Shown here: positions 1,729-29,420 of the stretch, piece by piece
How the letters are laid out: each line of letters starts with the position of its first letter
Position numbering within the stretch: the stretch's first letter is position 1
Assembly (NCBI GenBank): GCA_963676565.1
Contig: OY781089.1
Coordinates: 1,984,001 to 2,048,000, forward strand
DNA: 64,000 nt
Reading direction: 5' to 3'
From: Halarcobacter sp.
GTDB lineage: Bacteria; Campylobacterota; Campylobacteria; Campylobacterales; Arcobacteraceae
Position numbers and translations under genes: made by a program
The notes under the pieces: model-generated
The model's input: the letters and a program-made list of their open reading frames with translations, nothing else
What the model was told of the DNA's origin: nothing
Databases searched by the model: none

Positions 1729-1732
1729 TACA

Positions 1733-2498: not shown

Positions 2499-3473
2499 AT
2501 GATAAAGTTAAATTCCCTTCAATTTTCAAATGTATTACCATTAGAATATGACAAAGAACAAACTCTAAATCCATTAAAAAATAACGAAAATATTGAAAAT
2601 AAAATCAAAGAGTTTTCATCAAAATTTGGATTTAAAAATCTTAAAACTTTTAAGTTTAATAAAGATGGTTTTATCTCTTTAATGCTTTCTTTAAAAGGAA
2701 AAATTAGTGTTAGTGTAGGGGAGAGTGAAGCTATTGTTCAAGCTGCTAATTTCTTAATAGAAAAAGGTTATGAAATAGATTTAATCCCACTTACAAAAGA
2801 GGGCTTTGTTGATATGACTAAGTTATCTAAATGCGACTATATTTTTTGCTCTTCATATGTAATGGATACATATGTTAAAACTAATTTAGATGAAGTAAAA
2901 CAAAAAACTCAAGCTACAATTATCTCTAATATTAGTGCAACATTATCTAGTATTGGTGCAGATATTGCATTGTTAGATGCATATAAACTAACTGGATATT
3001 CTTTAGACTCAATACTCTTATACAATGATGAATTTGAAGAGAGTGTAATCTCTGAAATTTCAACAATTTCAATCTATCAAATAGAAAAAAATATTAAAAA
3101 AATTAATTATGAAACAACTATAAAAAATAGTTTTCTGGAAACTCTTAACGGGGAGTTTAAGACTAACATTTTCTATTTTGTAAACCCTAAAGATACTTTA
3201 GAGTATACACTTCACTTTGGTTTAAAGGGTATAAAAGCAAGGGAAATAATTAGAACCTTAGCCTTAGAAAACATTCTTGTTACAAATGGAGAAGGTTGTT
3301 CTCTTGGTTTTTCTAAACCGTCAAGAATTATACAGGAAATGTCTTATACAGAAAGTGAATCTAGATGGGCATTGAGTTTAGATTTTAGTGAATATTTAGA
3401 TGATGAAACTATTTTAAAAGTAGTTAAAAAAATCTCTAAAAAATATAGACAAATTTTACTTTTAAATTCATAG
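2499..3473 (+). CDS. Divergent class V aminotransferase / NifS-like cysteine desulfurase homologue
   Basis: DAYKLTG at the PLP-Lys motif position and VTNGEGCSLG at the catalytic-Cys loop; N-terminal NifS motifs are degenerate. Confidence 0.7.
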   Translation: MIKLNSLQFSNVLPLEYDKEQTLNPLKNNENIENKIKEFSSKFGFKNLKTFKFNKDGFISLMLSLKGKISVSVGESEAIVQAANFLIEKGYEIDLIPLTKEGFVDMTKLSKCDYIFCSSYVMDTYVKTNLDEVKQKTQATIISNISATLSSIGADIALLDAYKLTGYSLDSILLYNDEFEESVISEISTISIYQIEKNIKKINYETTIKNSFLETLNGEFKTNIFYFVNPKDTLEYTLHFGLKGIKAREIIRTLALENILVTNGEGCSLGFSKPSRIIQEMSYTESESRWALSLDFSEYLDDETILKVVKKISKKYRQILLLNS

Positions 3474-11264: not shown

Positions 11265-12569
11265 TTAGTCTTCCCTTTTTTCTTTCCCTTGATAGTTTCT
11301 ATTAGTGTTTTCATCTCTAATTTGAATAGAGTCTTTTCCAACAAATTGAGATTTTGATATTAGTTCAACATTATTGTTAGCAATTTTAGACATTTGTGAT
11401 GAAATTATTCTAACATTTTCTGCAACTTGTGCATTTTTTTGAGTTAGTGTATCTATTTGGGCAACGGTATTATTTATCATAGAAATACCTAATTCTTGCT
11501 CTTTTGAGGATTGAACAACCTGTTCAATTAGTGAAGTAGTACTATTTATTTTTGCACTTAGGTTTTCATAACCTAATATCATATCATCAGCAATACCTTT
11601 ACCTTCATTAGCCTTAATTGATGCAGATTCAACCAAATTTTTTATCTCTTTTGCTGCATCAGCACTTCTGTTTGCTAGATTTCTAACTTCCCCCGCTACT
11701 ACTGCAAACCCTTTTCCAGCTTCTCCTGCCGTTGCTGCTTCAACTGCTGCATTTAAAGAAAGGATATTTGTTTGAAAAGCAATTTGGTCAATCATATCTA
11801 AAGCTTCATGAACATCCTTTGTTGAATTATTAATTTCATTCATTGCTGTAACTGTTTTTGTTGCTAGAGATAAACCACTTGAAATAGAATTAGTTACTTC
11901 AGCCCCATAGTTTTCCATTTCATTTGCCATATTAGTATTATTTTTGATTGTACTTGTTATCTCTTCAATAGCTGCAGATGCTTCTTCTAATGAAGCAGCT
12001 TGTGTTGTAGTTGATTGAGATAAGTTTGATGAAATATCAAGTAAGTCAGTAGATTCTTTTTGTAAAACTAAACTTGTTCTATATGTACTTTCTAATTGTT
12101 TAGTTATCTCTTTTTTTAGAAAATTAATCCCTTGGGTCATTTTTTTAAAATCCCCACCTCTAAACATTGTTTCATCAATTTCATGTAAAAAGTTTTGTTG
12201 AGAGTATTCATTTAATATCTTTTCAATATTTGCCAATGCTTTTTGAAGCTTTTCAGACATAACATTCATTGTCTTTGCAATATAGTTAAGTTTATTATTT
12301 GAACTTTCTTTTGTAACTCTATCTTCTGTAAAACCATCTGATAGTTTTTCTGCACAAAGCATTATTTCACCATAGATAGTTAAATCTTCAGTATTTTTAC
12401 TTTGAATTAAATTGGAAATATTTAAAATCTTTTCCATAATAAGCTTATCTGTACCACTACAAGTATTATCAGATTGTTCAATTTTATTGATATCCTCTTT
12501 TATGTAATCTTCTATAGTATCTAAAGCTTTTAATATATCATTTGAGTCTTGATTATTTTTAAAAAACAT
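11265..12569 (-). CDS. Cytoplasmic methyl-accepting chemotaxis protein
   Basis: IAFQTNILSLNAAVEAATAGEAGKGFAVVAGEVRNLA signalling hairpin; no TM segment evident. Confidence 0.93.
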   Translation of the reverse strand: MFFKNNQDSNDILKALDTIEDYIKEDINKIEQSDNTCSGTDKLIMEKILNISNLIQSKNTEDLTIYGEIMLCAEKLSDGFTEDRVTKESSNNKLNYIAKTMNVMSEKLQKALANIEKILNEYSQQNFLHEIDETMFRGGDFKKMTQGINFLKKEITKQLESTYRTSLVLQKESTDLLDISSNLSQSTTTQAASLEEASAAIEEITSTIKNNTNMANEMENYGAEVTNSISSGLSLATKTVTAMNEINNSTKDVHEALDMIDQIAFQTNILSLNAAVEAATAGEAGKGFAVVAGEVRNLANRSADAAKEIKNLVESASIKANEGKGIADDMILGYENLSAKINSTTSLIEQVVQSSKEQELGISMINNTVAQIDTLTQKNAQVAENVRIISSQMSKIANNNVELISKSQFVGKDSIQIRDENTNRNYQGKEKRED

Positions 12570-12578
12570 TTTATGGCC

Positions 12579-12962
12579 TTAGTCTAAAGTTTTATACAGT
12601 TCTTCTGCATTTTTAATCTCTTCATCTGTTGGCTTTACCCTAACAGAGATATATCTTAAGTTACCATTTACATCTTTAGAAGGAAATGCCGTTGCATTTA
12701 CCCAATAATACTCACCACTTTTTGTTTTATTCTTAACAATCCCATTCCATATTTTACCAGCTTGTATAGTTTCCCACAAATCCTTAAATGCAGCCTTTGG
12801 CATATCAGGATGTCTTACGTAATTATGTGGTTGACCTATTAATTCTTCTTTTGTATATCCTGCAATTTTACAAAAATCTTCGTTCGCATAAATAATTATT
12901 CCCTTTGAATCAGTCTCAGAAACAATCATTGTTTCCTTACTAAGTTTAACTTCCCCACTCAT
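12579..12962 (-). CDS. Stand-alone Aer/CetB-like PAS domain protein
   Basis: IVSETDSKGIIIYANEDFCKIAGY..ELIGQPHNYVRHPDMPKAAFKDLW; ATG 12962 with AAGGG RBS. Confidence 0.9.
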   Translation of the reverse strand: MSGEVKLSKETMIVSETDSKGIIIYANEDFCKIAGYTKEELIGQPHNYVRHPDMPKAAFKDLWETIQAGKIWNGIVKNKTKSGEYYWVNATAFPSKDVNGNLRYISVRVKPTDEEIKNAEELYKTLD

Positions 12963-13111
12963 TATTTTCCCTTTCAAAAGTTAAAAATAATATAATTATC
13001 CCCAGTATACAATAAAAGTGTATCTAAAATGTCTCTTTTTTCTAAAAAGTATCATTTCGTGTGAGTATTTTGTTGCTTTTTTTACTTATATTTCATTTAT
13101 AATAAATTGGA

Positions 13112-13123: not shown

Positions 13124-15322
13124 ATGAATGAGATATTAAAGAAATTAGACTTAAGTGATTATATAGATTCATTTTCTAAATTATTAGCTAGAGAAAAATC
13201 TATAATCCTAGAAGGGGATATAAACCTTCACCATAGACTTATTAGTGAATTATCAAAATTTGATTTAAAAGAACCAACAAAAGTTGCAAATCTTGACAAT
13301 GCATTGTTACATATACAAAAGCAAGGTATATTAAAAATATATGATATTTATGAGTTCATAAAAATCATTAAATATTTTAACTATTTAAAAAAGTTCAACT
13401 TTGAAGGAAAACTTGCTGAATGGATAGATAGAATTATAATTCCAACAGAGATTAACAAAATATGTGATTACTTTGACGAAAAAGAGAATTTAAGACAAGG
13501 TGTTAATGAAGATTATGATGCAATTAAAGGTGCAATTTATAATAATAAGCAAGAGATAAAACAAAGCCTTTATAAACTAATCAATAACACAAAACTAAGA
13601 AGCTATTTAGTTGATTCACAAGTTCACTATGTAAATGGTGAAGAGTGTTTATTAGTTCGTGGTGGCTTTAACCATGTTATAAAAGCAACTGTTTTAGATA
13701 GATCAAACTCTGGATTTTTTTATGTCTTACCCCATAGTGTTAGTAACTTAAAACAAAAACAAAGTGATTTAATAAATAAGCAAGAAGAGATACTTCTTAA
13801 AGTGTGTAAAGAGATAAGTTCTCTTTTTGAAAAGAATTTACTATTTTTAAAATTTATTAATAAAGAGTTTGATAGATTTGATCATTATCAAGCAAGAATA
13901 TTCTTTTCAAAAATAGGGGATAAGAATTTTATATTACCTAATAAGAAAGGTAAAAACAAACTAGTAGAGTTTAAACATCCAGCATTAAGTGATGCAAAAG
14001 CTATAAGTATAGATTTTTCAAAATCAGTAGTTATGATTACTGGGGTAAATGCTGGTGGTAAAACTATGATGTTAAAATCAATTCTATCAGCTGTATTTTT
14101 ATCAAAATACCTTTTACCATATTATACGCACCATACAAGTGAAGTTGGAACCTTTAAAGAGATTGCTGCTGTATTAGATGATCCTCAAAGTGTTAAAAAT
14201 GATATCTCAACTTTTGCAGGACGTATGGTAGAGTTTTCTAAACTATTTTCTTCAAAAAGTGCAATTGTAGGTGTAGATGAAATAGAACTAGGAACAGATT
14301 CAGATGAAGCAGCTAGCTTGTTTAAAGTTATAATAGAAGAGTTAATTCAAAAAGATATAAAAATCATCATAACAACACACCATAAAAGACTAGCTTCTCT
14401 TATGGCTTCAAATGAAAATGTAGAATTAATAGCTGCACTTTATGATGAAGAGAATCAAAAACCAACTTATGAGTTTTTACAAGGTACCATTGGAAAGTCT
14501 TATGCCTTTGAAACTGCTTCAAGATATGGAATACCACATAATGTAATTAAAAAAGCAAAAGTAGTATATGGTGAAGATAAAGATAGGTTAAATGAACTAA
14601 TAGAAAGAAGTAGTGCCTTAGAAATAGAGTATAAACAAAAGATTAAAAAACTTGAAGAAGAGCAAGAGAGATTTGAAAGATTAAATAAAAATCTAAAAGA
14701 GGCTAAAGAGAGTTTAGATGAACATATTTATGAAGAGAAATCAAAACTTCATAAAGAGTATAAAGATGCAAGAGAAGAAGCAAAGAAAGCTATTAAAGCA
14801 AAAATAGCTGTAGGGCATCAACATCTAAATGTAGCCCATGCAAAAGCTCAATCAATAAAAACTGAAAAAGTTCAAGAAAAAGTTGAACTTAAAGTAGGAG
14901 ATAGAGTTAAATATAGAAGTTCAAAGGGTGAGATTATATCTATAAAAGGGAAAAAGGCTTTTATAGAAAATGATATGGGGATGAAGATGCAAGTCTTACT
15001 TTCAGACTTACAAAGAAGTGGAAACCCACCTGAGATAAAAGCAAAACCAAAAGCTAGTGTAAATGTTCAAAGACCAGACTCTGGACATGTAAAATTAGAC
15101 CTACATGGACAAAGAGCAGATGAGGCAATAGAAAATTTAGATAAGTTTTTATCTGATGCACTAATTGCAGGCTTTGATGAGGTATTAGTTTATCATGGAA
15201 TTGGTACAGGAAAGCTATCATATGCTGTAAAACAGTTTTTAGATAAACATCCACGGGTAAAATCATATGAGGATGCCCATCCATCTTCTGGCGGCTTTGG
15301 AGCTAAAGTTATTAAACTTTAA
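13124..15322 (+). CDS. mutS2: Endonuclease MutS2
   Basis: ITGVNAGGKT, ISTFAGRM, VDEIELGTD, ITTHH; C-terminal Smr domain LDLHG...HGIGTG...GGFGA. Confidence 0.96.
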   Translation: MNEILKKLDLSDYIDSFSKLLAREKSIILEGDINLHHRLISELSKFDLKEPTKVANLDNALLHIQKQGILKIYDIYEFIKIIKYFNYLKKFNFEGKLAEWIDRIIIPTEINKICDYFDEKENLRQGVNEDYDAIKGAIYNNKQEIKQSLYKLINNTKLRSYLVDSQVHYVNGEECLLVRGGFNHVIKATVLDRSNSGFFYVLPHSVSNLKQKQSDLINKQEEILLKVCKEISSLFEKNLLFLKFINKEFDRFDHYQARIFFSKIGDKNFILPNKKGKNKLVEFKHPALSDAKAISIDFSKSVVMITGVNAGGKTMMLKSILSAVFLSKYLLPYYTHHTSEVGTFKEIAAVLDDPQSVKNDISTFAGRMVEFSKLFSSKSAIVGVDEIELGTDSDEAASLFKVIIEELIQKDIKIIITTHHKRLASLMASNENVELIAALYDEENQKPTYEFLQGTIGKSYAFETASRYGIPHNVIKKAKVVYGEDKDRLNELIERSSALEIEYKQKIKKLEEEQERFERLNKNLKEAKESLDEHIYEEKSKLHKEYKDAREEAKKAIKAKIAVGHQHLNVAHAKAQSIKTEKVQEKVELKVGDRVKYRSSKGEIISIKGKKAFIENDMGMKMQVLLSDLQRSGNPPEIKAKPKASVNVQRPDSGHVKLDLHGQRADEAIENLDKFLSDALIAGFDEVLVYHGIGTGKLSYAVKQFLDKHPRVKSYEDAHPSSGGFGAKVIKL

Positions 15323-17483
15323 GATATTTTTTTCTAATCTCATCTTTACATAATGGTTTAGAAAATAAATATCCTTGTACATAATTAGCATTTATATCCT
15401 TTAGCCATTGAAGGCTTTCATTGGTTTCCACCCCTTCAATTACAATGTCACAGTTTAATCCCTGTGTCATGGAAATCATTGAAGTTACCATCTTTCTAGC
15501 TTGTTCATCTTTATCAATTCTAAAAGTAAAAGATTTGTCAACTTTTACTACATCTATTGGGAGGTTATGTAACTGTGATAATGAGGCATACCCTGTCCCA
15601 AAATCATCTAAATAGATTCTTGAACCTTTTTTTGATAATTGATTTAGTTGAAAGTTTAAACTTTCAAGATTTTCCATTGTACTTGTTTCTGTTATCTCAA
15701 AATTAAAATTTTTTAGTTGAAGTGCATGTTTCAATGCGATAGATTCAAAATTCTCTATAAAACTCTCTTTCATTAGTTGTAATACAGAAAGATTTACAGC
15801 AATTGGTAGATTCTTAAGATTATTTTCTTTGTTAAATTTATAAAAGATACAAACTTCATTGAAAATAAGTTCCCCAAGTTCTGTTATCAAACCTTCTGAT
15901 TCTGCAATTGAAATTATATTTTCAGGATTAATAAATTCCTCATCATCATTTTTTACTCTTAAAAGTGCTTCTAATGAGTTGATTTCATTATTTTTCGTAT
16001 TAAAAATTGGTTGGTAGAAAACCTCTAAATATTTTGATGGATTTTTTAATGTTTTTAATAAAATATTTTTAAAACTATCTTTTTCTAAAATATATTTTTC
16101 ATCCTCCTCTTTAAATATAGAAACTTGATTTCTTCCTGCATTTTTTGATCTATACATTGCTGAATCAGCTCTACTCATTAATTCTGCTGTAGTTGTTCCA
16201 TGATCAGGGTAAATAGATACACCAATTGATGTACCTATATTGTGTTCATTATTATTTATAAAAAAAGGTTTTCTAATCTCCTTTATTAAAGACTCTGCAA
16301 TTTTTAATATAATCTTCTCATCTTGAATTCTAGATAATATAATTACAAACTCATCTCCCCCAATCCTTGCTACAATATCATTTGTTCTAACTTTTGATAA
16401 TATTCTTTGTGCAGTTTCTTGAAGAAGTAAATCACCTTCGTGGTGTCCATATATGTCATTTACTTGTTTAAAATGATCTAAATCTAAAAATAAAACAGCA
16501 TTTTTTGTTTTTTTTCTTTTTGAGTTTTCAAGTAAATTTGAGAAATTAATATTTAAAAAATGTCTATTAACAAGTCCAGTTAATACATCATAGTGAGCTA
16601 ATCTATCTAATTCATATTGTCTTTTCTTTCTATCAGTAATATCTGAAAAAATTGCTATATAAAACATTTTTTTAGTTACAGGTTCAATAACTCTGTTTAT
16701 TTGTAACCACTCTGGAAAAATATTATTATTTTTTCTTTTGTTCCAAACCTCACCAGCCCACCAACCATGGTGTGTTATAGATTTCCAGATATCACTGTAG
16801 AAATCTTTCGTATGTCTTCCTGATTTAAGTATACTTGGAGTTTTTCCTAGTACAAAGTCTTGGGAATAACCTGTTATTTCTGTAAATGCACTGTTGACTT
16901 TTAAAATTTTAGCTTCTTCATTTGTAATTATTACACCATCTTTTAATTGATCTAATACTAAATGAGATAGATAATTAGAGCTTTGTGAACCATCAGAATC
17001 ATATGGCAAGATTACACCCATAATTAGTATACCTCTTTCATAGTTTTGAACATCTAGTTTTTTTAATGATAAACTAAAACTTTTTTGATTTTTTAATAAT
17101 AAAAAATGGAAATTCATAGATTTTTGAGAGGTGTCTTTTAGAAATGTTTGAAATTTTGAAGTATATTCCATAAAAACAGATTGATCAAGAAACGTTCTGA
17201 AGTTTTGTTCTAAAATATTAAATTTCCCATTTTCAAAAAAGTTAATAGCAGTTTCATTAAGTTTTTTAATTTTACCAAACTTATCAATTATTACTAGTAT
17301 ATTTGGCGATTGTTCAAAATAGGTACTATAATCTTTTTCTATATTTATCCCACTATATAATAAGTCATTTTCTAATATTTGACAGTCTTGTTTTTGTTTA
17401 AAAAGTTCCTGTTGTAAATCAACAATTATTTGATTTAAACTAGAAATTTGTTCTTGATATGCTCTTATTTCTTCATCAAACAT
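15312..17483 (-). CDS. Coiled coil-PAS-PAS-GGDEF-EAL diguanylate cyclase/phosphodiesterase
   Basis: YDVLTGLVNR, RTND I-site, RIGGDEF, LEALLR, DDFGTGY, KVDKSF, EGVET all intact. Confidence 0.93.
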   Translation of the reverse strand: MFDEEIRAYQEQISSLNQIIVDLQQELFKQKQDCQILENDLLYSGINIEKDYSTYFEQSPNILVIIDKFGKIKKLNETAINFFENGKFNILEQNFRTFLDQSVFMEYTSKFQTFLKDTSQKSMNFHFLLLKNQKSFSLSLKKLDVQNYERGILIMGVILPYDSDGSQSSNYLSHLVLDQLKDGVIITNEEAKILKVNSAFTEITGYSQDFVLGKTPSILKSGRHTKDFYSDIWKSITHHGWWAGEVWNKRKNNNIFPEWLQINRVIEPVTKKMFYIAIFSDITDRKKRQYELDRLAHYDVLTGLVNRHFLNINFSNLLENSKRKKTKNAVLFLDLDHFKQVNDIYGHHEGDLLLQETAQRILSKVRTNDIVARIGGDEFVIILSRIQDEKIILKIAESLIKEIRKPFFINNNEHNIGTSIGVSIYPDHGTTTAELMSRADSAMYRSKNAGRNQVSIFKEEDEKYILEKDSFKNILLKTLKNPSKYLEVFYQPIFNTKNNEINSLEALLRVKNDDEEFINPENIISIAESEGLITELGELIFNEVCIFYKFNKENNLKNLPIAVNLSVLQLMKESFIENFESIALKHALQLKNFNFEITETSTMENLESLNFQLNQLSKKGSRIYLDDFGTGYASLSQLHNLPIDVVKVDKSFTFRIDKDEQARKMVTSMISMTQGLNCDIVIEGVETNESLQWLKDINANYVQGYLFSKPLCKDEIRKKYLKV

Positions 17484-17500
17484 AATTATTTCCTATTAAA

Positions 17501-20320
17501 CTATTTAAAAAATAAAATTCTATCAGGATATAAAGGATCAGGACATTTTTCATGTTTATATTTAACAACATTTCTATTTTTATATTTATCTAAAATTGTA
17601 ATACTACTCCAACCATCACTATCGATTGTATTATTTTTAAAGATGGTATTTTCAATTTCATTTTTAGTAATATTTAAAAAAAGTTTTTCTAAACTTAATT
17701 CTTTTAACTCTCTAGCACTATAATTGAAAAGTTTTTCAGCTAAAAAGTTTGTATGAATTATATTAGAATTTGTATCTACACAAATTATTGGATATTTAGA
17801 ATAAGAACCTAATAGTCCTATAAATTTTTCATGTAATTGATCTGATAAGTAAGTTCTATCTTTTACTTTTTCAAAAAATAGTATTGCACCTACAACCTCT
17901 TTATTATCAAATTTATAAGGAACAATTCTAAGGTCATGATTAATTCTTCTACTCCTTAGATTTATTACAGATTCTTTTTCTAATTCTATTACATTTAAAA
18001 GTTCTGTTCTTAGATTTGGAATATCCATGGTAAAGCCAAATGAAGTTACAACTTGTCCAATGTCATCATGGATTAGTTCAAATAATTTCCCTGCTTTATT
18101 TGTATATCTTTGAAGTCTTAATCTGTTATCAACAAATAAAATATTTTCATCTATTGAACTTAACATTGCAGATAAATCATTGTTTACTTTTCCTAATTCA
18201 AAAGATTTGACTTCTAATTCCTCATTAACCGTTGAAAGTTCTTCATTTGTTGATTGAAGTTCTTCATTAGCAGTTTGAAGCTCTTCATTTGCAGATTGAA
18301 GTTCCTCATTTGCAGATTGAAGTTCTTCATTTGTTGATTGAAGTTCCTCATTACTTGTTTCCAAATCTTGAATAGAACTTTGTAATCTTTCTCTAAAAAT
18401 CTCAATCTCTTGTTTTAATTTATTTTTACTTAGTTCATCAATATCTTTATGATTAACACTAATTGCTGATTCATCAGATAATTCTATTTCTAAAAAAGCA
18501 ATAACAAACAAATCATCTTCTGATGGAGTAATTTCCTCTATAATAATATAAAGTATTCTTTTTTTATCTTTAGAATTGAAGAATAAAGCTTGAGAAGCAG
18601 CATGCTTCTCTTTTTTTGCCTGTTGTAAAAGAGACCTTATATCAATTTTTAAATCATCTTTTGCCATATTAAAAATATTTGTTTCTACTCTTCCTTGCGG
18701 AAATTCAAGGTACTCATTGATATTTCCTTTTATATGTAACATTTCACCCAATGAATTTATTACAATAGAAGCAGGCAAAACTCTATCATTTAAGATTTTA
18801 TTCATTTTATCTTCTAAGCTAACTTCTTCATCTAATTTCATTTTGGTTTTAGTACTAATAGTTTTTTGATTTTTTACTAGTTTTTTTGCACCTTTTACAT
18901 AGTCCAAATTAAAAGATATATCTGTTTTTTTTCTTTTAAATAGTTGGGATTTATTTGTGGAAACATCATATAGTTCAGGAGCTGTGTTTACAGCAGATTC
19001 AGATTTTCCTAAAAACAGATAACTATTTGGTCTTAGGGAATAGTGAAAAGTTTGAAAAATCTTTTTTTGTGTTTCATTGTTAAAGTATATTAGAACATTT
19101 CTACAACTAATTAAGTCTATATTAGAAAAAGGTGGATCCATAATTACGTTTTGTTTTGCAAAAACAACATGATCCCTAAGGGATTTATTTACTATATAAG
19201 AGTTATCATTTTCTTGAAAGTATCTTTTTAACAAAGCTTGATTAATCTCTTTTACTTGAGATGCAGAATATACAGCTTTTCTAGCTAAATTAAGCGCATA
19301 ATCATCAATATCTGTTGCAAATATTTGAAATGAGACAGGTTTATCTTGTTTTCTTTTTGCTTCTTCAAATAATATTGCAATAGAATAAGCTTCAGCTCCA
19401 TTTGCACAACCCGTAACCCAAACTCTAATAGGATCTTTTAAATCTCTTTTTTTAACAATATTATCGACTACTATTTTTAGGTCGTCAAATGCTTCTTTAT
19501 CCCTAAAAAAGTCTGTAACTGAGATAAGTAAGTCTTTAAATAAGGCTTCAACTTCAGAAGAAGAACTATTTAAGAGATTAATATAATCTTCTAAAGCAAC
19601 TATTTTATTAACCACCATTCTTCTTTGAATTCTTCTTTGAATTGTTTTTAATTTATAGCCACTAAAATCATATGAGGTTTGATCAAATATTGATTGAAAT
19701 ATTTTTTCTAAATTAGTTCTTATTTTTGGTTCAGTAACTTTATATTGATACTCTTCCGTTGTATTTATTAGTTTAGGAAGTTCAATTGCAATCTCATTTG
19801 CAGGAAGAATTAAATCAACAAAACCAGTTTCAATTGCAGATTTAGGCATACCAGAATATTTTGCACTTATTTCATCTTGCGCTATTGTTATTCCACCAGC
19901 TGCTTTTATAGCTGTGATTCCAACAGAACCATCACTTCCAGTACCAGATAAAACTATACCTATACTATAATCTTTTAATTCATCCGCCATAGAGCTAAAT
20001 AGTTCATTTATTGAAGGTTTTGGCCCAATTAATGCTGCAGGAGATAATTTTATCTCTTCATCCTTAATTGAAGCATTATGTCCAGGAGCAATAATATAAA
20101 TTGAACCTTTTTCAGGTTTAATATCTTTTTCTACCATATGAATAGGTAGATTTGTAACCCGTGCTAATAAATCTTTTAGAATAGTTGGATGGGTTGGGTC
20201 AAGATGTTGTGCAATTATATAAATTGCATCACTAAACTCTAGGTTTTTTAAAAACTCTTTTATTGCATCTAGTCCCCCAGCACTAGCACCGATTCCTATC
20301 CAGAAATTTTTCTTTTTCAT
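17501..20320 (-). CDS. CheB methylesterase-CheR methyltransferase fusion with coiled coil and PAS domains
   Basis: CheB triad GASAGG / AQHL / LSGTGSDG; CheR VTDFFRD, RVWVTGC, IFATDID, DLISCRNVLIYF; NEEL heptads; C-terminal PAS-like segments. Confidence 0.94.
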   Translation of the reverse strand: MKKKNFWIGIGASAGGLDAIKEFLKNLEFSDAIYIIAQHLDPTHPTILKDLLARVTNLPIHMVEKDIKPEKGSIYIIAPGHNASIKDEEIKLSPAALIGPKPSINELFSSMADELKDYSIGIVLSGTGSDGSVGITAIKAAGGITIAQDEISAKYSGMPKSAIETGFVDLILPANEIAIELPKLINTTEEYQYKVTEPKIRTNLEKIFQSIFDQTSYDFSGYKLKTIQRRIQRRMVVNKIVALEDYINLLNSSSSEVEALFKDLLISVTDFFRDKEAFDDLKIVVDNIVKKRDLKDPIRVWVTGCANGAEAYSIAILFEEAKRKQDKPVSFQIFATDIDDYALNLARKAVYSASQVKEINQALLKRYFQENDNSYIVNKSLRDHVVFAKQNVIMDPPFSNIDLISCRNVLIYFNNETQKKIFQTFHYSLRPNSYLFLGKSESAVNTAPELYDVSTNKSQLFKRKKTDISFNLDYVKGAKKLVKNQKTISTKTKMKLDEEVSLEDKMNKILNDRVLPASIVINSLGEMLHIKGNINEYLEFPQGRVETNIFNMAKDDLKIDIRSLLQQAKKEKHAASQALFFNSKDKKRILYIIIEEITPSEDDLFVIAFLEIELSDESAISVNHKDIDELSKNKLKQEIEIFRERLQSSIQDLETSNEELQSTNEELQSANEELQSANEELQTANEELQSTNEELSTVNEELEVKSFELGKVNNDLSAMLSSIDENILFVDNRLRLQRYTNKAGKLFELIHDDIGQVVTSFGFTMDIPNLRTELLNVIELEKESVINLRSRRINHDLRIVPYKFDNKEVVGAILFFEKVKDRTYLSDQLHEKFIGLLGSYSKYPIICVDTNSNIIHTNFLAEKLFNYSARELKELSLEKLFLNITKNEIENTIFKNNTIDSDGWSSITILDKYKNRNVVKYKHEKCPDPLYPDRILFFK
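18215..18352 (-). repeat. 21-nt coding tandem repeat (7 x NEEL heptad)
   Basis: NEELQST NEELQSA NEELQSA NEELQTA NEELQST NEELSTV NEEL. Confidence 0.92.
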
Positions 20321-21795
20321 ACTTTCCCTTCAATAATTTTAAAAAACTGATTTGTGAACTTTAAGGCAGCTAATTCTTCTTGACTATGAAATTTATTACA
20401 AAACCCATGTTTTTCTTCAACAAATCTTTCAAATGACCTTCTAGGAGATAATCTAAAAACTCCTTTATGTTCTACAATAGATTTATTAGGATTTCCTGCC
20501 CAAGTTAGTTTTTCAGAAATTTCATTTCTAAACCAGTAAGATCTTAGTGCTGAGTTTTGAGATTCTAGTTTGATCCCTAAAACTCCAACTGGTCCTATAA
20601 AGTTCAAATCAAAATCTTTTGATATAGAGTTTGAAACTATTTTATTAGAATTTGAATTTAAAAAGTATTCATCTAAGTTTCTTAATGAATTGTTTTCAGG
20701 TATTGAACCTATTGCCCATATTTGAGAGTTATAAATTATAATTAAACCATCGCTGTTTAATAGTTGTAAAAAATGATTTTTATTCTCTTGTATTTGTATT
20801 TCGAAATTATTTAAATCAGAGATAGTATTTAATAAAGAGTTTATTTTATGCTCAACTAAATCTAAATAGGCAATTTTTTCTTTTGCAAAGAAGTTTTGTA
20901 AACCTAGTGAAAACTGTTGGATAAGATTAAGTATATTATTTCTTTGTAAAGGATCTATTCTTTTATATGTGAAGTTATGGCAAGCTAACAGCCCCCAAAG
21001 CTTGTTTGCAATTATAATTGGGATTGATAAAGATGTTATAACTCCCATATTTTTTAAATATTCAATATGAACGGGGGAAACACTTCTTATATCTGAAAAA
21101 GTTAAATCTGGTTTACTCCCATCTATTGTTAAGATATCTATATCTTTTGAGTTTACATCAGCAATTAATCTGTAGGGATTAATCATATACATATCCCTTG
21201 CAATTTTAGGAATATCTGATGCAGGGAACATCAATCCTAGATAACTATCAGCACCTTCATTTGAAACTTTTTCTGCAATCACTTTTCCTGACCAATCATC
21301 TTGAAATTGATATATTAAAATTCTGTCAAATTTCAGTTGATTATCTATAAGTTCTAAAAATGTATTTTTATAGTCATTGTATTCAATATCATTACAAGGA
21401 GCAATTGTAAGTTCTGTATTGTACTTAATAGTTTTACTTAAAAATTCTTCTTTAATCTTTTGAATATCTATAACTATTGAATTATCAATTTTAGATAACT
21501 TAAGTAAAAGTTTTTCTTTTTTTAAAGTTTTATAAAAAAAATTTACATCTTCATCATCTAATTTATATTCATCTAAAAGTTTGTAAAAATCTTTTAAGAG
21601 ATTTTTTATATTTTTTCCTAGCAAATCTTTACAATCAATTGATAAAAAATCTTTGATATTTTCAGAAACGTGGCTTATTATAAAACTTTCACTATCAAAT
21701 ACTAAAAGTGAGGAAAAAGATTGAATCATTCCAGTTAAGTGAAGTTGCTCTTGTTCACATGTTTTTAATAATTCATCAATATCATAGTTTTGCAT
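20317..21795 (-). CDS. bphP: Bacteriophytochrome photosensory core only (PAS2-GAF-PHY)
   Basis: N-terminal Cys13 (TCEQEQLHLTGMIQ), FPASDIP, RSVSPVHIEYLKNMGV, LWGLLACH, WAGNP, LSPRRSF; stop right after PHY helix. Confidence 0.93.
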   Translation of the reverse strand: MQNYDIDELLKTCEQEQLHLTGMIQSFSSLLVFDSESFIISHVSENIKDFLSIDCKDLLGKNIKNLLKDFYKLLDEYKLDDEDVNFFYKTLKKEKLLLKLSKIDNSIVIDIQKIKEEFLSKTIKYNTELTIAPCNDIEYNDYKNTFLELIDNQLKFDRILIYQFQDDWSGKVIAEKVSNEGADSYLGLMFPASDIPKIARDMYMINPYRLIADVNSKDIDILTIDGSKPDLTFSDIRSVSPVHIEYLKNMGVITSLSIPIIIANKLWGLLACHNFTYKRIDPLQRNNILNLIQQFSLGLQNFFAKEKIAYLDLVEHKINSLLNTISDLNNFEIQIQENKNHFLQLLNSDGLIIIYNSQIWAIGSIPENNSLRNLDEYFLNSNSNKIVSNSISKDFDLNFIGPVGVLGIKLESQNSALRSYWFRNEISEKLTWAGNPNKSIVEHKGVFRLSPRRSFERFVEEKHGFCNKFHSQEELAALKFTNQFFKIIEGKV

Positions 21796-21800
21796 AATAT

Positions 21801-22385
21801 CTAGCTTTCAAAGTGTTTTTTTAGTACTATAAATGTTTCTGTGGCACCTAAAGTTGTTTCATATTTATCAATTTCTACTTCATCTAACCACTTTGAAAAA
21901 CTTAACCATTTATTCATGGTATCCTGTTTATATGATTGATAATATCTATTTGGTACATTGTTCTTAAAGTTTTTTTCTATCATTTTAACTATTTGCATCC
22001 CACCCATAGTTGAACCCTCTAATACATAAAGTGCACCAACTACAGAAGCGAAATTATTTAATGTTTTAAATTCTATATTTTTTTTAATATTTAAATTGTC
22101 AATTTCTACATTTAAATAGTTTAAATCTTCAATTAACCATTTCGTTTTTTCAAGTCTTTTTTCTATATCTTCAAGCTTTTTTTCCACAAATTCATTTTTA
22201 TGGTTTTTAATAATTAATTCGATTATACTAAAAAAAGAATAAAGTTTTTTTAATAAAAAAATATACTCCTCTTCAGACAAATTATTTTTTTTGATTTTTT
22301 CGAATAAATAGAATTCTTCTAGCCATTCATGGAGTGGATAAGTAGCATTTTTTAGATGGTTTTTCAGTGAATCGTTATTTTTCAT
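21801..22385 (-). CDS. bphO: Biliverdin-producing heme oxygenase
   Basis: LKNATYPLH proximal His and GALYVLEGSTMGG distal helix; 5 nt upstream of the phytochrome. Confidence 0.92.
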   Translation of the reverse strand: MKNNDSLKNHLKNATYPLHEWLEEFYLFEKIKKNNLSEEEYIFLLKKLYSFFSIIELIIKNHKNEFVEKKLEDIEKRLEKTKWLIEDLNYLNVEIDNLNIKKNIEFKTLNNFASVVGALYVLEGSTMGGMQIVKMIEKNFKNNVPNRYYQSYKQDTMNKWLSFSKWLDEVEIDKYETTLGATETFIVLKKHFES

Positions 22386-22458
22386 AAATTAATATCTCCC
22401 CTAGTAATAATTTATTTTATCTTATTATTAATAAATTAATATAATTTTTATATACGGT

Positions 22459-24831
22459 TTATATATTTTTTGGATTTTCAAAAGGGGGACTAAATAAGTA
22501 TCCTTGTGAGTAATCAATTCCTAACTCTTGTACCTTTTTTAAGATTGATTCATTTTCAACAAATTCTGCAATTGTTTTCATCCCTAAATCTTTCGCAAAA
22601 TTCACTATATTTTTACAAACTTTTTCACTAAGAATATCTTTATCAATATTTTTTATTAAAGAACCATCTATTTTTATAAAATCTGCTTTTAGTTTTAAAA
22701 GATATTCAAAATTACTATAACCAGTACCAAAATCATCAATAGCAATTCTACACCCAAAAGATTTAACTTTTTTAATAAAATTTAAAACAATTTCAAAGTT
22801 TTCAATTGATTCAGATTCAACTATCTCAAAAACAACTCTTTTACCAACTTGTGAGTCTGATAGTATTTTATAAATAAACTCTTTTATCTCAACATTTAAA
22901 ATATCTTCAATTGTTAAATTTATAGAAAAATTATATTCAAGGTCTTTGAATTTTTCTATGGTTTTTTCTATCATAATTTTTGTAATTTGATTGTAAAATT
23001 TAGTTTTCTTTGAAATTTCTAGAAAAAAGTAGGGTGATATTAATTTATCTTTTTTCCTCATCCTAACTAAAGCTTCATATTTTTCAACCTTTAAAGTTTT
23101 GTTATTTATAATTGCTTGATATACTGGTAGAATATTGTCTTTTTCTATTGCATCTTTAATGGATTTAGTCCATTTTATATTATTTTCATACTCTTTGTCT
23201 AAAGATATATCATCTTTGTAAACTAAGATATCTTTATTGTGTTGCTTTGCAATTTTAATAGTCATTGTTGCTGTGTTTAAAATTCTATTTTTTTCTTCAA
23301 AGGAGATTCCAATGGTAAAATTTAAATTGATAAAGTCTTCACTATCAATATAAAAATTTTCTTTTTTTAGTTGGGTGTTTATAGAGTTAATTTTTTGCAA
23401 AAAAAGATCAGTACTTATATCTTCATAAAAAATTACAAATTCATCACTATGTAAACGATAAATGTTACAACTATTTGAATCTTTTATAATGTTTAGTTTT
23501 TCTGCAAATCTTTTAAGTATCTTGTCACCAATTATATATCCATAAAAATCATTTATTTCAGAAAACCTATCAATATTTATAATTGCTAATGCAGGCTTAG
23601 TGCTTTTGTTTATATCATTTATAAGTTTATATCTATTTCCTAAGTTTGTTAGAATATCAGTATTAACAATAGTATCTAATCTTTCTTGTTGTTCAATAGT
23701 TTTAGTTATATCATGTCTTATTCCAATATATTCATTTATATTGTTTTTATCATCAAGAATAGGGACTATTGTAATATCTACCCAATAATAATTTCCATCT
23801 TTAGTGATATTTTTTAATGTTTTTTTCCAAACTCTTTTTGATCTAATCGTTGTCCACAACTCTTCAAAAATAGATTTTGGATTATCTGGATGTCTAATAA
23901 TATTATGGGGTTTACCAATTAATTCCTCTTTTGTATAGCCACTTATTTTACATAAGTTATCATTTACATAAGTAATATTACCTGCTAAGTCTGACTTTGA
24001 AACGATACTTGATTTATCCATCGCAATTTTGTAACTTTCAAATAAAGATATAGTCCTTTTTAATTCATATTCTATCTCTTTTATTTGACTTATATCTTGA
24101 ACTGTCCCAACAGACCTATATGGATTACCATCTTTGTCAAAGTAATTATCACATTTTTCTTCAACATATTTTATTCTTCCATCTTTCATTTTTAATCTAT
24201 GTTGAATAGCATAAGGTTTTTTTGTTTTAAGTGAATTTAAATATGCATTATTTACCATCTCTTTATCTTCTGGATGAATTGCATTTAAAAAATATTCATA
24301 AGAAGGTTCAAATTTAGATTTATCTATTTCGAAAATCTTATATATTTGATCAGACCAAAAGAGATTATTATTGATAATGTCATACTCCCAGTTACCAATA
24401 TTTGCTAACCTTTGAGCTGTATTCATTTTTTTTGTTATTTCAACTTCTCTTGTGACATCTTTTTGAATACCTAAAAAAAACTGTAGTTTATTGTTTTCGT
24501 CAAAAATTGGAGTTATTGTTAATTCACAGTAAACAATTTCACCATTTTTTTTCTGATTTTTAACAATAGTAGTTATTGATTTTTCTTCTTTTATTGCCTT
24601 TCTTATTTCATCTATTGATTTTTGTTCTTTATTACTTGTTTGTAGGAATCTACAGTTTTTACCCAAAACTTCATCCTCTTTATAATCAAACATTTTATAA
24701 AAACTTTTATTTGCGTAAATAATAGGATTATCGTCTTTTTTAGGATCAGTAATTAGTATTCCGTTTACTGCTTGGTCTATGATTTTTGAGAGAAAAATAT
24801 TTAAGTTTTCATCTAAATAATCTTCTCCCAT
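22459..24831 (-). CDS. LOV-PAS-PAS-degenerate GGDEF-EAL protein (putative blue-light-regulated c-di-GMP phosphodiesterase)
   Basis: ITDP..DNPIIYAN, GKNCRFLQ (Cys60), FFLGIQ LOV motifs; GGDEF site reads HSDEF; YEALVR, DDFGTGYS, KIDGSL, AEFVE. Confidence 0.92.
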   Translation of the reverse strand: MGEDYLDENLNIFLSKIIDQAVNGILITDPKKDDNPIIYANKSFYKMFDYKEDEVLGKNCRFLQTSNKEQKSIDEIRKAIKEEKSITTIVKNQKKNGEIVYCELTITPIFDENNKLQFFLGIQKDVTREVEITKKMNTAQRLANIGNWEYDIINNNLFWSDQIYKIFEIDKSKFEPSYEYFLNAIHPEDKEMVNNAYLNSLKTKKPYAIQHRLKMKDGRIKYVEEKCDNYFDKDGNPYRSVGTVQDISQIKEIEYELKRTISLFESYKIAMDKSSIVSKSDLAGNITYVNDNLCKISGYTKEELIGKPHNIIRHPDNPKSIFEELWTTIRSKRVWKKTLKNITKDGNYYWVDITIVPILDDKNNINEYIGIRHDITKTIEQQERLDTIVNTDILTNLGNRYKLINDINKSTKPALAIINIDRFSEINDFYGYIIGDKILKRFAEKLNIIKDSNSCNIYRLHSDEFVIFYEDISTDLFLQKINSINTQLKKENFYIDSEDFINLNFTIGISFEEKNRILNTATMTIKIAKQHNKDILVYKDDISLDKEYENNIKWTKSIKDAIEKDNILPVYQAIINNKTLKVEKYEALVRMRKKDKLISPYFFLEISKKTKFYNQITKIMIEKTIEKFKDLEYNFSINLTIEDILNVEIKEFIYKILSDSQVGKRVVFEIVESESIENFEIVLNFIKKVKSFGCRIAIDDFGTGYSNFEYLLKLKADFIKIDGSLIKNIDKDILSEKVCKNIVNFAKDLGMKTIAEFVENESILKKVQELGIDYSQGYLFSPPFENPKNI

Positions 24832-25092: not shown

Positions 25093-25479
25093 CTAGCCTT
25101 TTAGTGATTTAATCATCTCTTCCATGATTACATTTGCTTGTTCATTTGGCGCTTCTAAAAAGTTTACTACAAACATATCTTCTAGTTCACAAACACCTAT
25201 TGCTCTTGGTCTTACAGCTAAAACCTCAGGAGTTGGTATCTCTTTACCAAAACAAAATATAATATTTTTAGCATCTTTAATATCTTCTCTTATAACTCCA
25301 TCTACTCTCTTTGTTTGTGAAAACTGATCAAATGTTGAAATATAAGCTATCACAGGATGTGCATCAATTTTGTCTTTTAGCGCTGCTAATATCTCATTCA
25401 CATTTTTGAATTTTAATTCATCTTTTGAAAATTCAATTTCAAAAATGTGGTATTTATCTTTAAAAGTTTTTTGTTTCAT
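25093..25479 (-). CDS. Conserved hypothetical protein (DUF6858/DUF302-like)
   Basis: AGGA RBS; IIFCFG..IP..LAVRPRAIGV motif. Confidence 0.75.
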   Translation of the reverse strand: MKQKTFKDKYHIFEIEFSKDELKFKNVNEILAALKDKIDAHPVIAYISTFDQFSQTKRVDGVIREDIKDAKNIIFCFGKEIPTPEVLAVRPRAIGVCELEDMFVVNFLEAPNEQANVIMEEMIKSLKG

Positions 25480-26135: not shown

Positions 26136-29100
26136 TTATTTTGTAGAGACATCGAAGTTAAATACTGCCCATTTGTTTTTCTCATCTTCTTGTTTTGTAA
26201 TGTCATCTATAATAATAGATTCTTTTGGAACTTTTTTCATGTTAAATAAGTAATTTTTAATATTTTCTATTCTTTTTTTAGTAATTGAAATCAATTCTTT
26301 TTCTGAAACATTTTGTTTAGAAGCAAGGAAATCTCTTAAGTATTCTGTATACGCATCAATTTGAAAATACTCTTTTCCATTTTTATCTTTTTTATAATAT
26401 GTTTCTTTTATTTTATCTAAGTCTTTTACATCTTTTAACTCATTATAAAACTCTTCTAAAGCTTCTTTATAATCATCCCCTTCAGGTATCTTTTCCATTC
26501 TTTTTAATACAAATTGTTCAAATTTTATATCTTGAAGAGCTTTTTTATCTTTTTGAGGATTATAAATTGGTTTTATCTTTATTGCAAGTCTAGGTTTTTT
26601 TGATAAAAGTTTTGCAATACTATCTAAGGTCTCTTTTTCAGAAGGTACAATATCACTTTTACCAAACTCAAAATCCATACTTTTTATCTTATCTTCATCA
26701 ATTCCTAACATTGCCCCAAGTAAGGCAAATGGTGAAGTGATTGCTTTAACTATTAAGTTTGTGAATACTTTCCAAACAATAGGTGCAATTGAAAATTGAG
26801 GATCATCAACATTACCTGAAATAGGTAAATCAATATCTATAATTCCATCTGAATCTTCTAGTAATGCAATAGCTAGTTCTAATGGAAGATTAACTGCGTC
26901 TGGACTTTCTACTTTTTCACCCAATTTAATATCACTAATGATAACTGAGTTTTGGGCACTTAAATCAGATTTTTTGATATTATATTTTAAATCTAGATTT
27001 AATTTACCACTATCGATTTTTCTTCCTATAAATTTACCTGAATATGGTGTGAAATTTTTAATTGCTATATTTTTAAATAATAAATTTGTATCTGTTAATA
27101 ATTTAATATCATTAATATCTACAGTTCCAACAATTTTTGTATAACCATATTTATCAACTTTACCTTCCAATTGGAGTTTTGTTGGTTTTGAATTACTTGA
27201 GTTTAATCTTGAAAAACTACCTTGTAGTTCATTTATATTTGTTTTAAATGGTATTGGAAGATTTTTATCTTCAAAAGTCATCTTCATATTTTTTATTTTT
27301 ACTGGACCTACATCAAATTTAAAATCACTTTTTTCTTTTGAAGCTTTTTTAACTGTTTCTTCTTCAACTTTTTTGTCTTGTGATTTTTCTTTTTTCCCTA
27401 GTGTAATTGATACATAGGGTTTATTTATATCTGAAGATTGAACTTTTAAATTATTGTTAGCAAAAGAGATTTTATTTACATTTATGTTAATATTTTTTGC
27501 AAGAATATCAGTTTTTGCTTTTTTATCTTTTATATTTGTATTTGGATTATATAAATTTAAACTAGAAATTGAAATTGCACCTTTATTACTAATTAGATCA
27601 TTCAATTTCAAACTGATGTTTCTTGCAACAATATTTTGATCATTTTTATTATCAACAAAATAAATTGAAGGCTTAGCTAATCTAATTGTTTTAATATTTA
27701 GTTTTTCATCTTTTAGTGTTGTATTTAAAGCACTTAGATTTAAGCTTTTTGTTGTGATATTCATTTTACTTTTTTTATCATTGAATTTTATAGTTGGAAT
27801 ACTTAATTTTGTTTCATCAAGAGCTATATCATTTCCATTTAGGCTAAAGTTTTTAGCGGTGATAGTATTTGAGTTAGCTACAACATTCATAGAACTTTTC
27901 TTATCTAAAAAATAAATAGATGGGTTTGTTAGTTTTATATTTGAGATAGTTGTGCTTTCATTTTCTTTTTTGATATTAGCGATATTTAAATCAGTTTTTT
28001 TACTAAATATTGTGGTTTTATTTTTTAAGTCTTCAAAATCTAAAGAACTATTTTTTATATTTAATTCATCAAGTAAGATATTTGAATTTGAAAAAGAGAA
28101 ATTATTTGCATCTATTTCTAACTCTTTATTTAAAATTGATAAATTGTTGTTTTTATTGTCAATTGTAATATTAGGTTTTGACAAAAGTAAATTGGCTAGT
28201 GTAATATCACTACCATCAACTTTTAAATCTTTTAAAGTAATATTTAAATCATCTGTTTTTGTAAAAAGTTTGCTTGATAAATCATCAAATTTTATATTTG
28301 ATTCTTTTAAATCAAAGTTTTTTAAAGAGATAGTCCATTTGTTACTTTCTTCTTGTTTTTGTGAAGCATTTGTTTCAATTTCAGTATTTATAGGCTCTTC
28401 AACTTTTTCTTCATTATTTGCAATTAAATTTGCAAAATTAATTTCACCTTTTTCATCTACTATTGCATTAAGATTTAGTTGATTTAAAACTATCGCTTCT
28501 ATATCAATATTGTTTTTTGGATATTGAAGATTTATATTATCTATTGCAAAATTTTCTAAAGAAGTTAGTGTTTTTTCATCTTTTGATATATTAAGTTTAT
28601 TTAATGCTAAATAACCATCATTTAAAATGACACTCAACTTATTTTCTGTATCAACTTTATAACCAATTTTTAAATCAATAAAAGTCTCTTCACTTAAATC
28701 AAAGTTTACTAAATCTTTTTTGTAGTTTAAAAACTGTTTTGGTCTAATATTTTTTAGCTCTACATTTCCATACATTTTAAATGGAGCAAGTCTTAAACCT
28801 CCGTTTATTTCTAACTCACTATTTTGATTGATTAACATTCTTAATGAGTGTGAAGCTAAAATATTTCTAAATGTACCCATATCATAAAATGTATAATCAA
28901 ATTTACTAATATTTAATTTATATGGTTCATCATCTTTATTTAATTTTGTGAAGTTAATAGAAGCATTATCTAAAATAGTTCTATATATTTGGAATTTTAT
29001 ATCTGAACTAGTTGTTTTTGTTTCCTCTTTAGTTTTTTCCTCTTTCTTTTCTTTTAAAAGTTTTTGTAGGTTAAAGGTTCCATCTTCATATTCAATAATA

Positions 29101-29420
29101 TTTAGATAAGGGTTTACAAGTTTTAAATCTTTAAAAGCTATATGAAGTTCATCAATTGACCTTAAAACAGCAAAATCAATATAAATATTATCTATCTTTG
29201 CTGTTGTTTCTTTATCATTGTAAATCTCTAAGTTTTGTAAAGATAGTTTTAATAAAAAAGGATTGAATTCTATTTTCTCTAATCTAGCTTTTTGAGTAAT
29301 ATTCTCATTAATAATTTTTTCTATTTGTGGTTTAGCAATTTTGGGAATAGCTATGAAACCAATAATAGTATAAATTAAAAGAATCGACGATATTGTTATA
29401 AGTAGTTTACCATTTTTCAT
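26136..29420 (-). CDS. DUF748 / AsmA-like envelope protein
   Basis: N-terminal TM, FNPFLL, PYSGKFIG..IDSGKLNLDL, LPLELAIALLED..G.IDIDLPISG, C-terminal OmpA-like region. Confidence 0.88.
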   Translation of the reverse strand: MKNGKLLITISSILLIYTIIGFIAIPKIAKPQIEKIINENITQKARLEKIEFNPFLLKLSLQNLEIYNDKETTAKIDNIYIDFAVLRSIDELHIAFKDLKLVNPYLNIIEYEDGTFNLQKLLKEKKEEKTKEETKTTSSDIKFQIYRTILDNASINFTKLNKDDEPYKLNISKFDYTFYDMGTFRNILASHSLRMLINQNSELEINGGLRLAPFKMYGNVELKNIRPKQFLNYKKDLVNFDLSEETFIDLKIGYKVDTENKLSVILNDGYLALNKLNISKDEKTLTSLENFAIDNINLQYPKNNIDIEAIVLNQLNLNAIVDEKGEINFANLIANNEEKVEEPINTEIETNASQKQEESNKWTISLKNFDLKESNIKFDDLSSKLFTKTDDLNITLKDLKVDGSDITLANLLLSKPNITIDNKNNNLSILNKELEIDANNFSFSNSNILLDELNIKNSSLDFEDLKNKTTIFSKKTDLNIANIKKENESTTISNIKLTNPSIYFLDKKSSMNVVANSNTITAKNFSLNGNDIALDETKLSIPTIKFNDKKSKMNITTKSLNLSALNTTLKDEKLNIKTIRLAKPSIYFVDNKNDQNIVARNISLKLNDLISNKGAISISSLNLYNPNTNIKDKKAKTDILAKNININVNKISFANNNLKVQSSDINKPYVSITLGKKEKSQDKKVEEETVKKASKEKSDFKFDVGPVKIKNMKMTFEDKNLPIPFKTNINELQGSFSRLNSSNSKPTKLQLEGKVDKYGYTKIVGTVDINDIKLLTDTNLLFKNIAIKNFTPYSGKFIGRKIDSGKLNLDLKYNIKKSDLSAQNSVIISDIKLGEKVESPDAVNLPLELAIALLEDSDGIIDIDLPISGNVDDPQFSIAPIVWKVFTNLIVKAITSPFALLGAMLGIDEDKIKSMDFEFGKSDIVPSEKETLDSIAKLLSKKPRLAIKIKPIYNPQKDKKALQDIKFEQFVLKRMEKIPEGDDYKEALEEFYNELKDVKDLDKIKETYYKKDKNGKEYFQIDAYTEYLRDFLASKQNVSEKELISITKKRIENIKNYLFNMKKVPKESIIIDDITKQEDEKNKWAVFNFDVSTK
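27429..28310 (-). repeat. Seven tandem 42-aa (126-nt) degenerate repeats within the DUF748 protein
   Basis: Units start LKES, LSKP, IKNS, LTNP, LSIP, LAKP, LYNP at exact 42-aa spacing. Confidence 0.85.

Follow-up and report, generated by a model that had tools for sequence, protein, structure and literature searches.

Inspection of a 64,000-nt stretch of DNA from Halarcobacter sp. (assembly GCA_963676565.1, contig OY781089.1, positions 1,984,001 to 2,048,000 of the forward strand; referred to below as the window) revealed a compact minus-strand gene cassette, in which a fusion of the chemotaxis enzymes CheB and CheR (939 amino acids; aa) is encoded between a bacteriophytochrome devoid of an output module and a PAS-GGDEF-EAL protein. 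We propose that the fusion protein, which is of the MAC1 type, methylates its own long helix and constitutes the middle component of a cassette that converts light into a cyclic di-GMP (c-di-GMP) signal with adaptation. Judged from the sequence comparisons presented below, we give this reading a probability of about 0.5.

Pfam searches of the 939-aa protein identified a CheB methylesterase domain, the CheR_N and CheR parts of an S-adenosylmethionine (SAM)-dependent methyltransferase, a PAS_10 domain and a weak C-terminal PAS_9 match (limits and E values are given in Table 1); HisKA, HATPase, GGDEF and MCPsignal gave no match in this protein (kinase domains at E≤0.01). In an AlphaFold2 model of the monomer (mean predicted local distance difference test score, pLDDT, 78) these domains follow each other in the order CheB, CheR, a linker (pLDDT < 50), a middle domain, one uninterrupted long helix (block pLDDT 75-86 over residues 650-720), PAS_10, a short helix and the C-terminal PAS. 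The middle domain appears PAS-like from the order of its modelled helices and strands, and the long helix of the monomer model would presumably pair into a dimeric coiled coil.

The CheB residues S13, H39 and D130 align with positions 164, 190 and 286 in chain 1a2o, a Salmonella CheB in which these positions form the catalytic triad, and the CheR motifs line up with the solved CheR structures 1af7 and 5ftw. The triad and the CheR motif residues (R273, E310, D337, D339, R407 and N408) are invariant across 66 homologues, and the catalytic residues are also kept in 22 phytochrome-linked relatives wherever the respective part of the protein is present (the N-terminus is missing from two of them). 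Because of this invariance, both enzyme domains look active. A first-pass annotation, prepared from the nucleotide sequence alone, had described an intact CheB Ser-His-Asp triad, CheR SAM-binding motifs, seven NEEL heptads and PAS-like domains accompanied by no kinase or cyclase, and all of this was confirmed, including the exact coordinates of the heptads. Its further statement that the gene lies outside a che operon is also correct, since the cassette contains no che genes and the only other CheR and CheB of the genome are encoded in a cheY-cheA-cheR-cheD-REC-cheB cluster about 200 kb away; it has to be qualified by the presence of GGDEF-EAL genes on both flanks of the heme oxygenase, phytochrome and CheB-CheR genes, and of a PAS gene and a gene for a methyl-accepting chemotaxis protein (MCP) 2.7 kb downstream. 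The canonical che cluster (contig positions ~2,206,300-2,211,400) has a phage-type integrase gene directly beside cheB.

The long helix carries seven N-E-E-L units at a spacing of seven residues, all of them in register, which at the DNA level form a 21-bp tandem repeat (5.6 copies, score 171). These heptads are not a matter of chance, because they are conserved in 136 distinct coil sequences (derived from 144 sequences, with two dropped for poor alignment; the coils of the family align gap-free). At six heptads N-E-E is kept in 131-136 of the 136 coils, and at the seventh the first Glu is distributed as E88/Q35/D11. With N at position a and L at position d of the heptad, the Glu pairs occupy positions b and c. 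All seven heptad positions, including those of the core, are near-invariant across the 136 coils, as expected of a surface that is read by an enzyme. Across the aligned 66 homologues (column identity 48% on average), the mean conservation amounts to 0.94 for residues 657-701, compared with 0.66 for CheB, 0.67 for CheR and 0.43-0.54 for the PAS domains, and the heptad tract is the highest-scoring 45-residue window of the protein (the runner-up reaches 0.78). By these comparisons the helix is conserved in the manner of a recognised surface and unlike a linker.

Two small residues stand two residues past the Glu pairs. The corresponding core motif, [EQ][EQ]xx[ASTG][ASTG], occurs five times within 60 residues of the helix, which is the maximum found among the 2514 open reading frames (ORFs) of the genome, followed by an MCP with four occurrences.

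The gene preceding that of the CheB-CheR protein, whose start overlaps the phytochrome stop by 4 nt (ATGA), encodes a phytochrome that ends after the PHY domain at residue 492, without a C-terminal output module. The NCBIfam BphP model matches its residues 10-464 below the cut-off, and Cys13 as well as the motifs DIP (194-196), WAG (432-434) and PRRSF (451-455) are invariant in 39 homologues; the N-terminal Cys, DIP and PRxSF are motifs that define bacteriophytochromes. Phytochromes are uncommon in this lineage, being present in 2 of 401 sampled genomes of the phylum and in 8 of 184 of the family. The output-less form was found in the family only in this Halarcobacter genome and in one congener (2/184). 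The congener carries a cassette with the same gene order and unrelated flanks. Besides a heme oxygenase, this cassette encodes a phytochrome of 494 aa as well as counterparts of the CheB-CheR protein (943 aa, 75% identity) and of the PAS-GGDEF-EAL protein (724 aa, 67% identity). Moreover, four of the closest CheB-CheR matches and four of the closest phytochrome matches are located on contigs of equal size, two of which are 6.2 and 8.9 kb long.

A metagenome scan, in which an alignment of 39 output-less phytochromes served as the query, retrieved 80 loci that were reduced to 59 clusters at 90% identity. The output-less form accounts for 37 of the clusters. The locus contains a CheR-bearing gene in 19 of these and none in six, although 4.5 kb or more of upstream sequence is available in the six; the contigs of the other 12 are too short to be informative (in three cases a truncated GGDEF/EAL frame adjoins the phytochrome where the contig ends). 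A CheR-bearing gene is therefore adjacent in 19 of the 25 informative output-less clusters, and in none of the 21 clusters whose phytochrome has an output domain of its own (12 of the 21 have at least 4.5 kb upstream). In one further cluster (L054) the CheB-CheR gene is present and the phytochrome is cut by the contig end. A contig search with the 939-aa protein as a single query yielded two distant loci only.

Output-less phytochromes usually adjoin a gene for one protein of about 1500 aa with the arrangement CheB-CheR-(PAS_10)-PAS-PAS-GGDEF-EAL, and the end of this gene is no more than about 100 nt from the start of the phytochrome gene. Residues 172-715 of the GGDEF-EAL protein of the window align to the C-terminal residues 940-1482 of such a fused protein. 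The CheB-CheR and GGDEF-EAL proteins of the window thus correspond to the two parts of a single fused protein in relatives, and this provides good evidence of their joint function. The link to light, assumed in the first-pass annotation and seen again in the congener and the metagenomes, is in our view well supported by the conserved gene neighbourhood together with these gene fusions.

Other arrangements include a CheB-CheR gene with a PAS kinase and a LuxR-type regulator (L020), and one with a hybrid kinase (L025). A third form of the pairing was observed on a 3286-bp contig from another genome of the family (L092), where the N-terminal part of a phytochrome (minus strand, 6-842) is divergent from a CheB-CheR gene (1100-3283; product 42% identical to that of the window), both genes being cut by the contig ends. 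Loci L033, L044 and L055 contain an output-less phytochrome followed by a PAS-PAS-HisKA-HATPase-REC hybrid kinase and no CheB-CheR gene (in L044 a REC-HD-GYP protein comes next), which looks like a phytochrome kinase split over two genes. In loci L061 and L062 phytochromes are fused directly to GGDEF-EAL. Locus L052 (7277-9980) shows an insertion sequence (IS)-type integrase gene upstream of a frameshifted PAS-GGDEF / GGDEF-EAL pair beside an output-less phytochrome, i.e. a decayed cassette.

The presumed output protein (723 aa) consists of an N-terminal coil and PAS-like part, a PAS domain, GGDEF and EAL. Its GGDEF, EAL and DDFGTG motifs are intact, and an RxxD-type sequence (RTND, residues 366-369) is found nine residues upstream of GGDEF. 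The possibility that its N-terminus is a degenerate copy of the helix and PAS_10 was considered and rejected (BLAST E=18; hhalign probability 27%, to the C-terminal PAS and not to the helix; neither is significant).

On these grounds, the following pathway may be envisaged. Heme oxygenase, whose gene occupies the same place in the cassette of the congener, would supply biliverdin to the phytochrome, which would sense red/far-red light. As it lacks an effector domain, the phytochrome would have to act by contact with other proteins. Its partner would be the CheB-CheR-PAS protein, or the complex of the latter with the GGDEF-EAL protein; a complex prediction for the phytochrome and CheB-CheR residues 500-939 gave a score of 0.00 without controls and counts neither for nor against binding. 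The CheB-CheR-PAS protein would take up the light signal and hand it on to the PAS-GGDEF-EAL protein, which would change the level of c-di-GMP. The tethered CheR would methylate, and the tethered CheB demethylate, the Glu pairs of the helix that joins the PAS-like domain to PAS_10, and the methylation level, through its effect on charge, would offset the signal in the manner of receptor methylation in chemotaxis. Since this CheB is without a receiver domain, feedback would require that the signalling state alter which of the two enzymes has access to the sites.

The CheB-CheR protein has at least 8000 homologues, all of them significant, many of which bear the source name "two-component system CheB/CheR fusion protein" (corresponding to KEGG K13924), and many relatives of 840-1000 aa likewise lack a kinase domain. 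The helix and PAS_10 module by itself is found in 11,095 clusters (50% identity) at E≤1e-10. The class MAC1 ("methyl-accepting coiled coil"), which has CheB- and CheR-related domains in one polypeptide, is credited to Wuichet and Zhulin 2010 in two later texts (bioRxiv 10.1101/2022.05.07.491037; PMC6943060). In these texts, MAC proteins are said to possess "apparent chemoreceptor and kinase domains" (bioRxiv 10.1101/2022.05.07.491037), and Pfam to hold no model for MAC (PMC6943060, MiST 3.0). The window protein shows three of the four sequence features of MAC1, namely (i) CheB with its triad, (ii) CheR_N plus CheR and (iii) a heptad coil with Glu pairs followed by PAS_10; the kinase domain is absent. 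We assign it, as a form without a kinase, to the CheB/CheR fusion family, i.e. to the MAC1 class, for which self-methylation was put forward as a hypothesis in 2010, and the self-methylation idea is therefore not new but a rediscovery of the MAC1 hypothesis. Our literature search found no functional study of a CheB-CheR fusion, and no paper that pairs this family with output-less phytochromes and c-di-GMP enzymes.

Many genomes of the Arcobacteraceae also contain a match of about 550 aa to CheB and CheR only (28-35% identity), often with one or two internal stop codons; such matches probably represent either a short fusion or separate cheB and cheR genes that lie next to each other and were read through.

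Several results weigh against self-methylation in a light-driven cassette. The strict MCP methylation-site consensus is [ASTG][ASTG]xx[EQ][EQ]xx[ASTG][ASTG], and this ten-residue motif has no match in the CheB-CheR protein, because the helix has Gln at a position where a small residue is needed. The test has power, since the six top scorers of the genome are all MCPs. When the helix alone was compared with Pfam at E≤10, MCPsignal was not among the 25 best of 131 families, and the matches listed were to generic coiled-coil models only, all of them below the cut-off. Exchange of E and Q, a typical trait of receptor sites that might mark sites of CheB deamidation, occurs at residues 651 and 700. 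As residues 682 and 703, which do not belong to the Glu pairs, show it too, it does not discriminate and was rejected as a mark. As regards the link to light, six of the 25 informative output-less clusters lack a nearby CheR gene, some having a hybrid kinase instead; in one of the six the copy is decayed and interrupted by an insertion sequence. A FastTree phylogeny of 64 CheB-CheR modules unites the 19 phytochrome-linked modules from metagenomes in one clade (support 96) and places the window protein in another (support 100) together with relatives of 940-980 aa; the rows of the tree came from two differently aimed searches, and the split partly reflects this sampling. The phytochrome linkage in the window may thus be a separate recruitment. 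Finally, no MAC protein had been characterised as of 2022 according to the preprint cited above (bioRxiv 10.1101/2022.05.07.491037).

Failure of the strict consensus and of the MCPsignal model would also be expected if the helix were a mere dimerising signalling helix, with CheB and CheR acting in trans. The genome encodes 24 MCPs, and such action is possible on some of these, including the one 2.7 kb from the cassette, which contains two strict consensus sites. Nevertheless, a plain coiled coil would keep its core positions only, the canonical CheR/CheD/CheB set already serves the MCPs, and a convergent gene separates the nearby MCP from the cassette. The distribution of the family is also difficult to reconcile with this explanation: fused CheB-CheR proteins are encoded in 48 of 201 sampled genomes of Bacteroidota (about a quarter), and 35 of the 48 are without any MCPsignal match, so MCPs cannot be the general substrate and the substrate of a fusion need not be an MCP. 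We therefore regard action in trans as unlikely. The proposal of the first-pass annotation that the protein's own heptads are the substrate holds up in part: conservation of the tract, the catalytic residues and the carriers lacking MCPs speak for it indirectly, and the strict consensus and the MCPsignal model do not. Its second candidate, the Glu/Gln-rich N-terminal coil of the GGDEF-EAL protein, finds little support. Residues 1-45 of that protein do form heptads with EE, EQ and QE pairs, but the 67% identical orthologue retains the QEQ unit only, the fused relatives of 1500 aa have no such second coil, and the likeness of this region to the CheB-CheR family is insignificant by the values given above. 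We consider this substrate highly improbable.

Methylation might instead be the relay itself, the phytochrome controlling the tethered CheB or CheR in place of the missing receiver domain, and methylation of the helix setting the activity of GGDEF/EAL as a slow covalent mark, without adaptation. A receiver domain gates canonical CheB, and the canonical CheB of this genome has one. The lack of an output domain in the phytochrome and the translational coupling of its gene to that of an enzyme-bearing protein fit a relay, and the linkage evidence agrees with it as well as with adaptation by self-methylation. However, nothing points to the domain that the phytochrome touches, and most members of the family are without an adjoining phytochrome (about 45 genomes of the Arcobacteraceae have fusions, as against 2 of 184 with an output-less phytochrome), so control of the enzymes by such a partner cannot be the general rule. 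A relay of this kind thus seems distinctly unlikely, and we retain self-methylation coupled to adaptation as the preferred reading.

The coordinates of the cassette genes and of the parts of the CheB-CheR protein are collected in Table 1.

Table 1. Genes of the cassette and predicted parts of the CheB-CheR protein (positions refer to the window)
Feature	Position	Strand	Basis and remarks
LOV-PAS-PAS-degenerate GGDEF-EAL protein, 790 aa, possible fifth gene	22459..24831	-	ends 73 nt before heme oxygenase start
Heme oxygenase, 194 aa	21801..22385	-	Pfam Heme_oxygenase 8e-14; stop 5 nt ahead of phytochrome start
Output-less bacteriophytochrome, 492 aa, PAS_2-GAF-PHY	20317..21795	-	Pfam PAS_2, GAF, PHY
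CheB-CheR fusion protein of MAC1 kind, without kinase, 939 aa	17501..20320	-	ORF, Pfam, homologues, AlphaFold2 model
CheB methylesterase domain without receiver domain, residues 7-190	19751..20302	-	Pfam CheB_methylest 8-180 (8e-49); alignment to 1a2o
CheR_N + CheR SAM-dependent methyltransferase, residues 203-463	18932..19714	-	Pfam CheR_N 204-252 (1e-11), CheR 268-448 (2e-53); alignment to 5ftw, 1af7
PAS-like middle domain, residues 502-613	18482..18817	-	helix/strand order in AlphaFold2 model; without Pfam match
Single long helix, presumed dimeric coiled coil, residues 632-722	18155..18427	-	AlphaFold2
Seven N-E-E-L heptads, candidate methyl-accepting sites, residues 657-702	18215..18352	-	sequence, alignment, tandem repeat
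PAS_10, residues 716-817	17870..18175	-	Pfam 4e-12; PAS-type strand pattern in model (726-818)
C-terminal PAS, residues 845-938	17507..17788	-	weak PAS_9 match (844-895); fold pattern in model
PAS-GGDEF-EAL protein, presumed output, 723 aa	15312..17483	-	start 17 nt past CheB-CheR stop

According to the ORF list and the domain search, five closely packed minus-strand genes occupy window positions 15312-24831, with gaps of 73, 5, -4 and 17 nt in the order of transcription, from the LOV gene to the GGDEF-EAL gene. A promoter and terminator scan detected no terminator between the cassette genes and no excess of promoter-like sites (64, versus 69.3 in shuffled sequence). It is uncertain whether the LOV-EAL gene belongs to the unit, because it is not part of the cassette in the congener. 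Its product has the LOV motif KNCRFLQ with Cys59, two further PAS domains, a degenerate GGDEF (HSDEF) and an intact EAL; as it adjoins the heme oxygenase and phytochrome genes, blue-light and red-light c-di-GMP sensor genes stand side by side. The last gene of the cassette is convergent with mutS2, beyond which the pair located 2.7 kb downstream is encoded on the minus strand (11265-12977), comprising a 132-aa PAS protein and then the 434-aa MCP (11265-12569). On the other side, upstream of the LOV gene, lie genes for a DUF6858 protein (25093-25479, minus strand) and, upstream of the latter, for a 1094-aa DUF748/YhdP-like protein (26136-29420, minus strand), neither of which has an evident relation to the cassette.

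Proteins of the MAC type are very common, and it is likely that they have stayed uncharacterised partly because their stimuli are not known. The cassette offers a switchable red/far-red stimulus and a simple c-di-GMP readout; with such an input and output, the 2010 hypothesis of self-methylation and adaptation becomes directly testable. If that hypothesis holds, adaptation by Glu methylation would extend beyond chemotaxis into second-messenger signalling. A large class of seemingly output-less phytochromes would be explained as well. Only tentatively do we suggest that output-less phytochromes and CheB-CheR coil proteins together make up an undescribed photoreceptor system, in which light would be converted into, or buffered by, reversible Glu methylation of a signalling helix governing the turnover of c-di-GMP, without a chemoreceptor, CheA or CheW. 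On that view no MAC-type protein before this one had a stimulus that is known and can be controlled, and the system would be a device of one or two polypeptides with adaptation built in.

Among the known systems, chemotactic adaptation of the Tar and Tsr receptors of E. coli/Salmonella shares with the cassette both enzyme families, with the same catalytic residues, and heptad-spaced Glu pairs on a long helix, followed by small residues in agreement with the core motif. It differs in that here (i) the enzymes are tethered to their presumed substrate and CheB has no receiver domain, (ii) CheA, CheW and MCPsignal are absent and the strict MCP consensus has no match, and (iii) the monomer model contains a single long helix and not a hairpin. 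BphG1 of Rhodobacter sphaeroides is a phytochrome fused to GGDEF-EAL, which has the same red/far-red input and c-di-GMP output; in the cassette, by contrast, the sensor and the effector are two different polypeptides, and a CheB-CheR-helix-PAS module is interposed. RpBphP1 with PpsR2 is likewise a photosensor without enzymatic output that acts on a partner encoded beside it, but the partner here would be a methylation-enzyme fusion together with a c-di-GMP enzyme, and not a transcription factor, and the phytochrome ends after PHY. With MAC1, as described in the sources cited above, the window protein shares the CheB- and CheR-related domains in one polypeptide, the conserved Glu-rich coil proposed as the methyl acceptor and the location outside che operons. 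It departs from MAC1 in having no kinase, its output being a separate GGDEF-EAL protein and its presumed input an output-less phytochrome.

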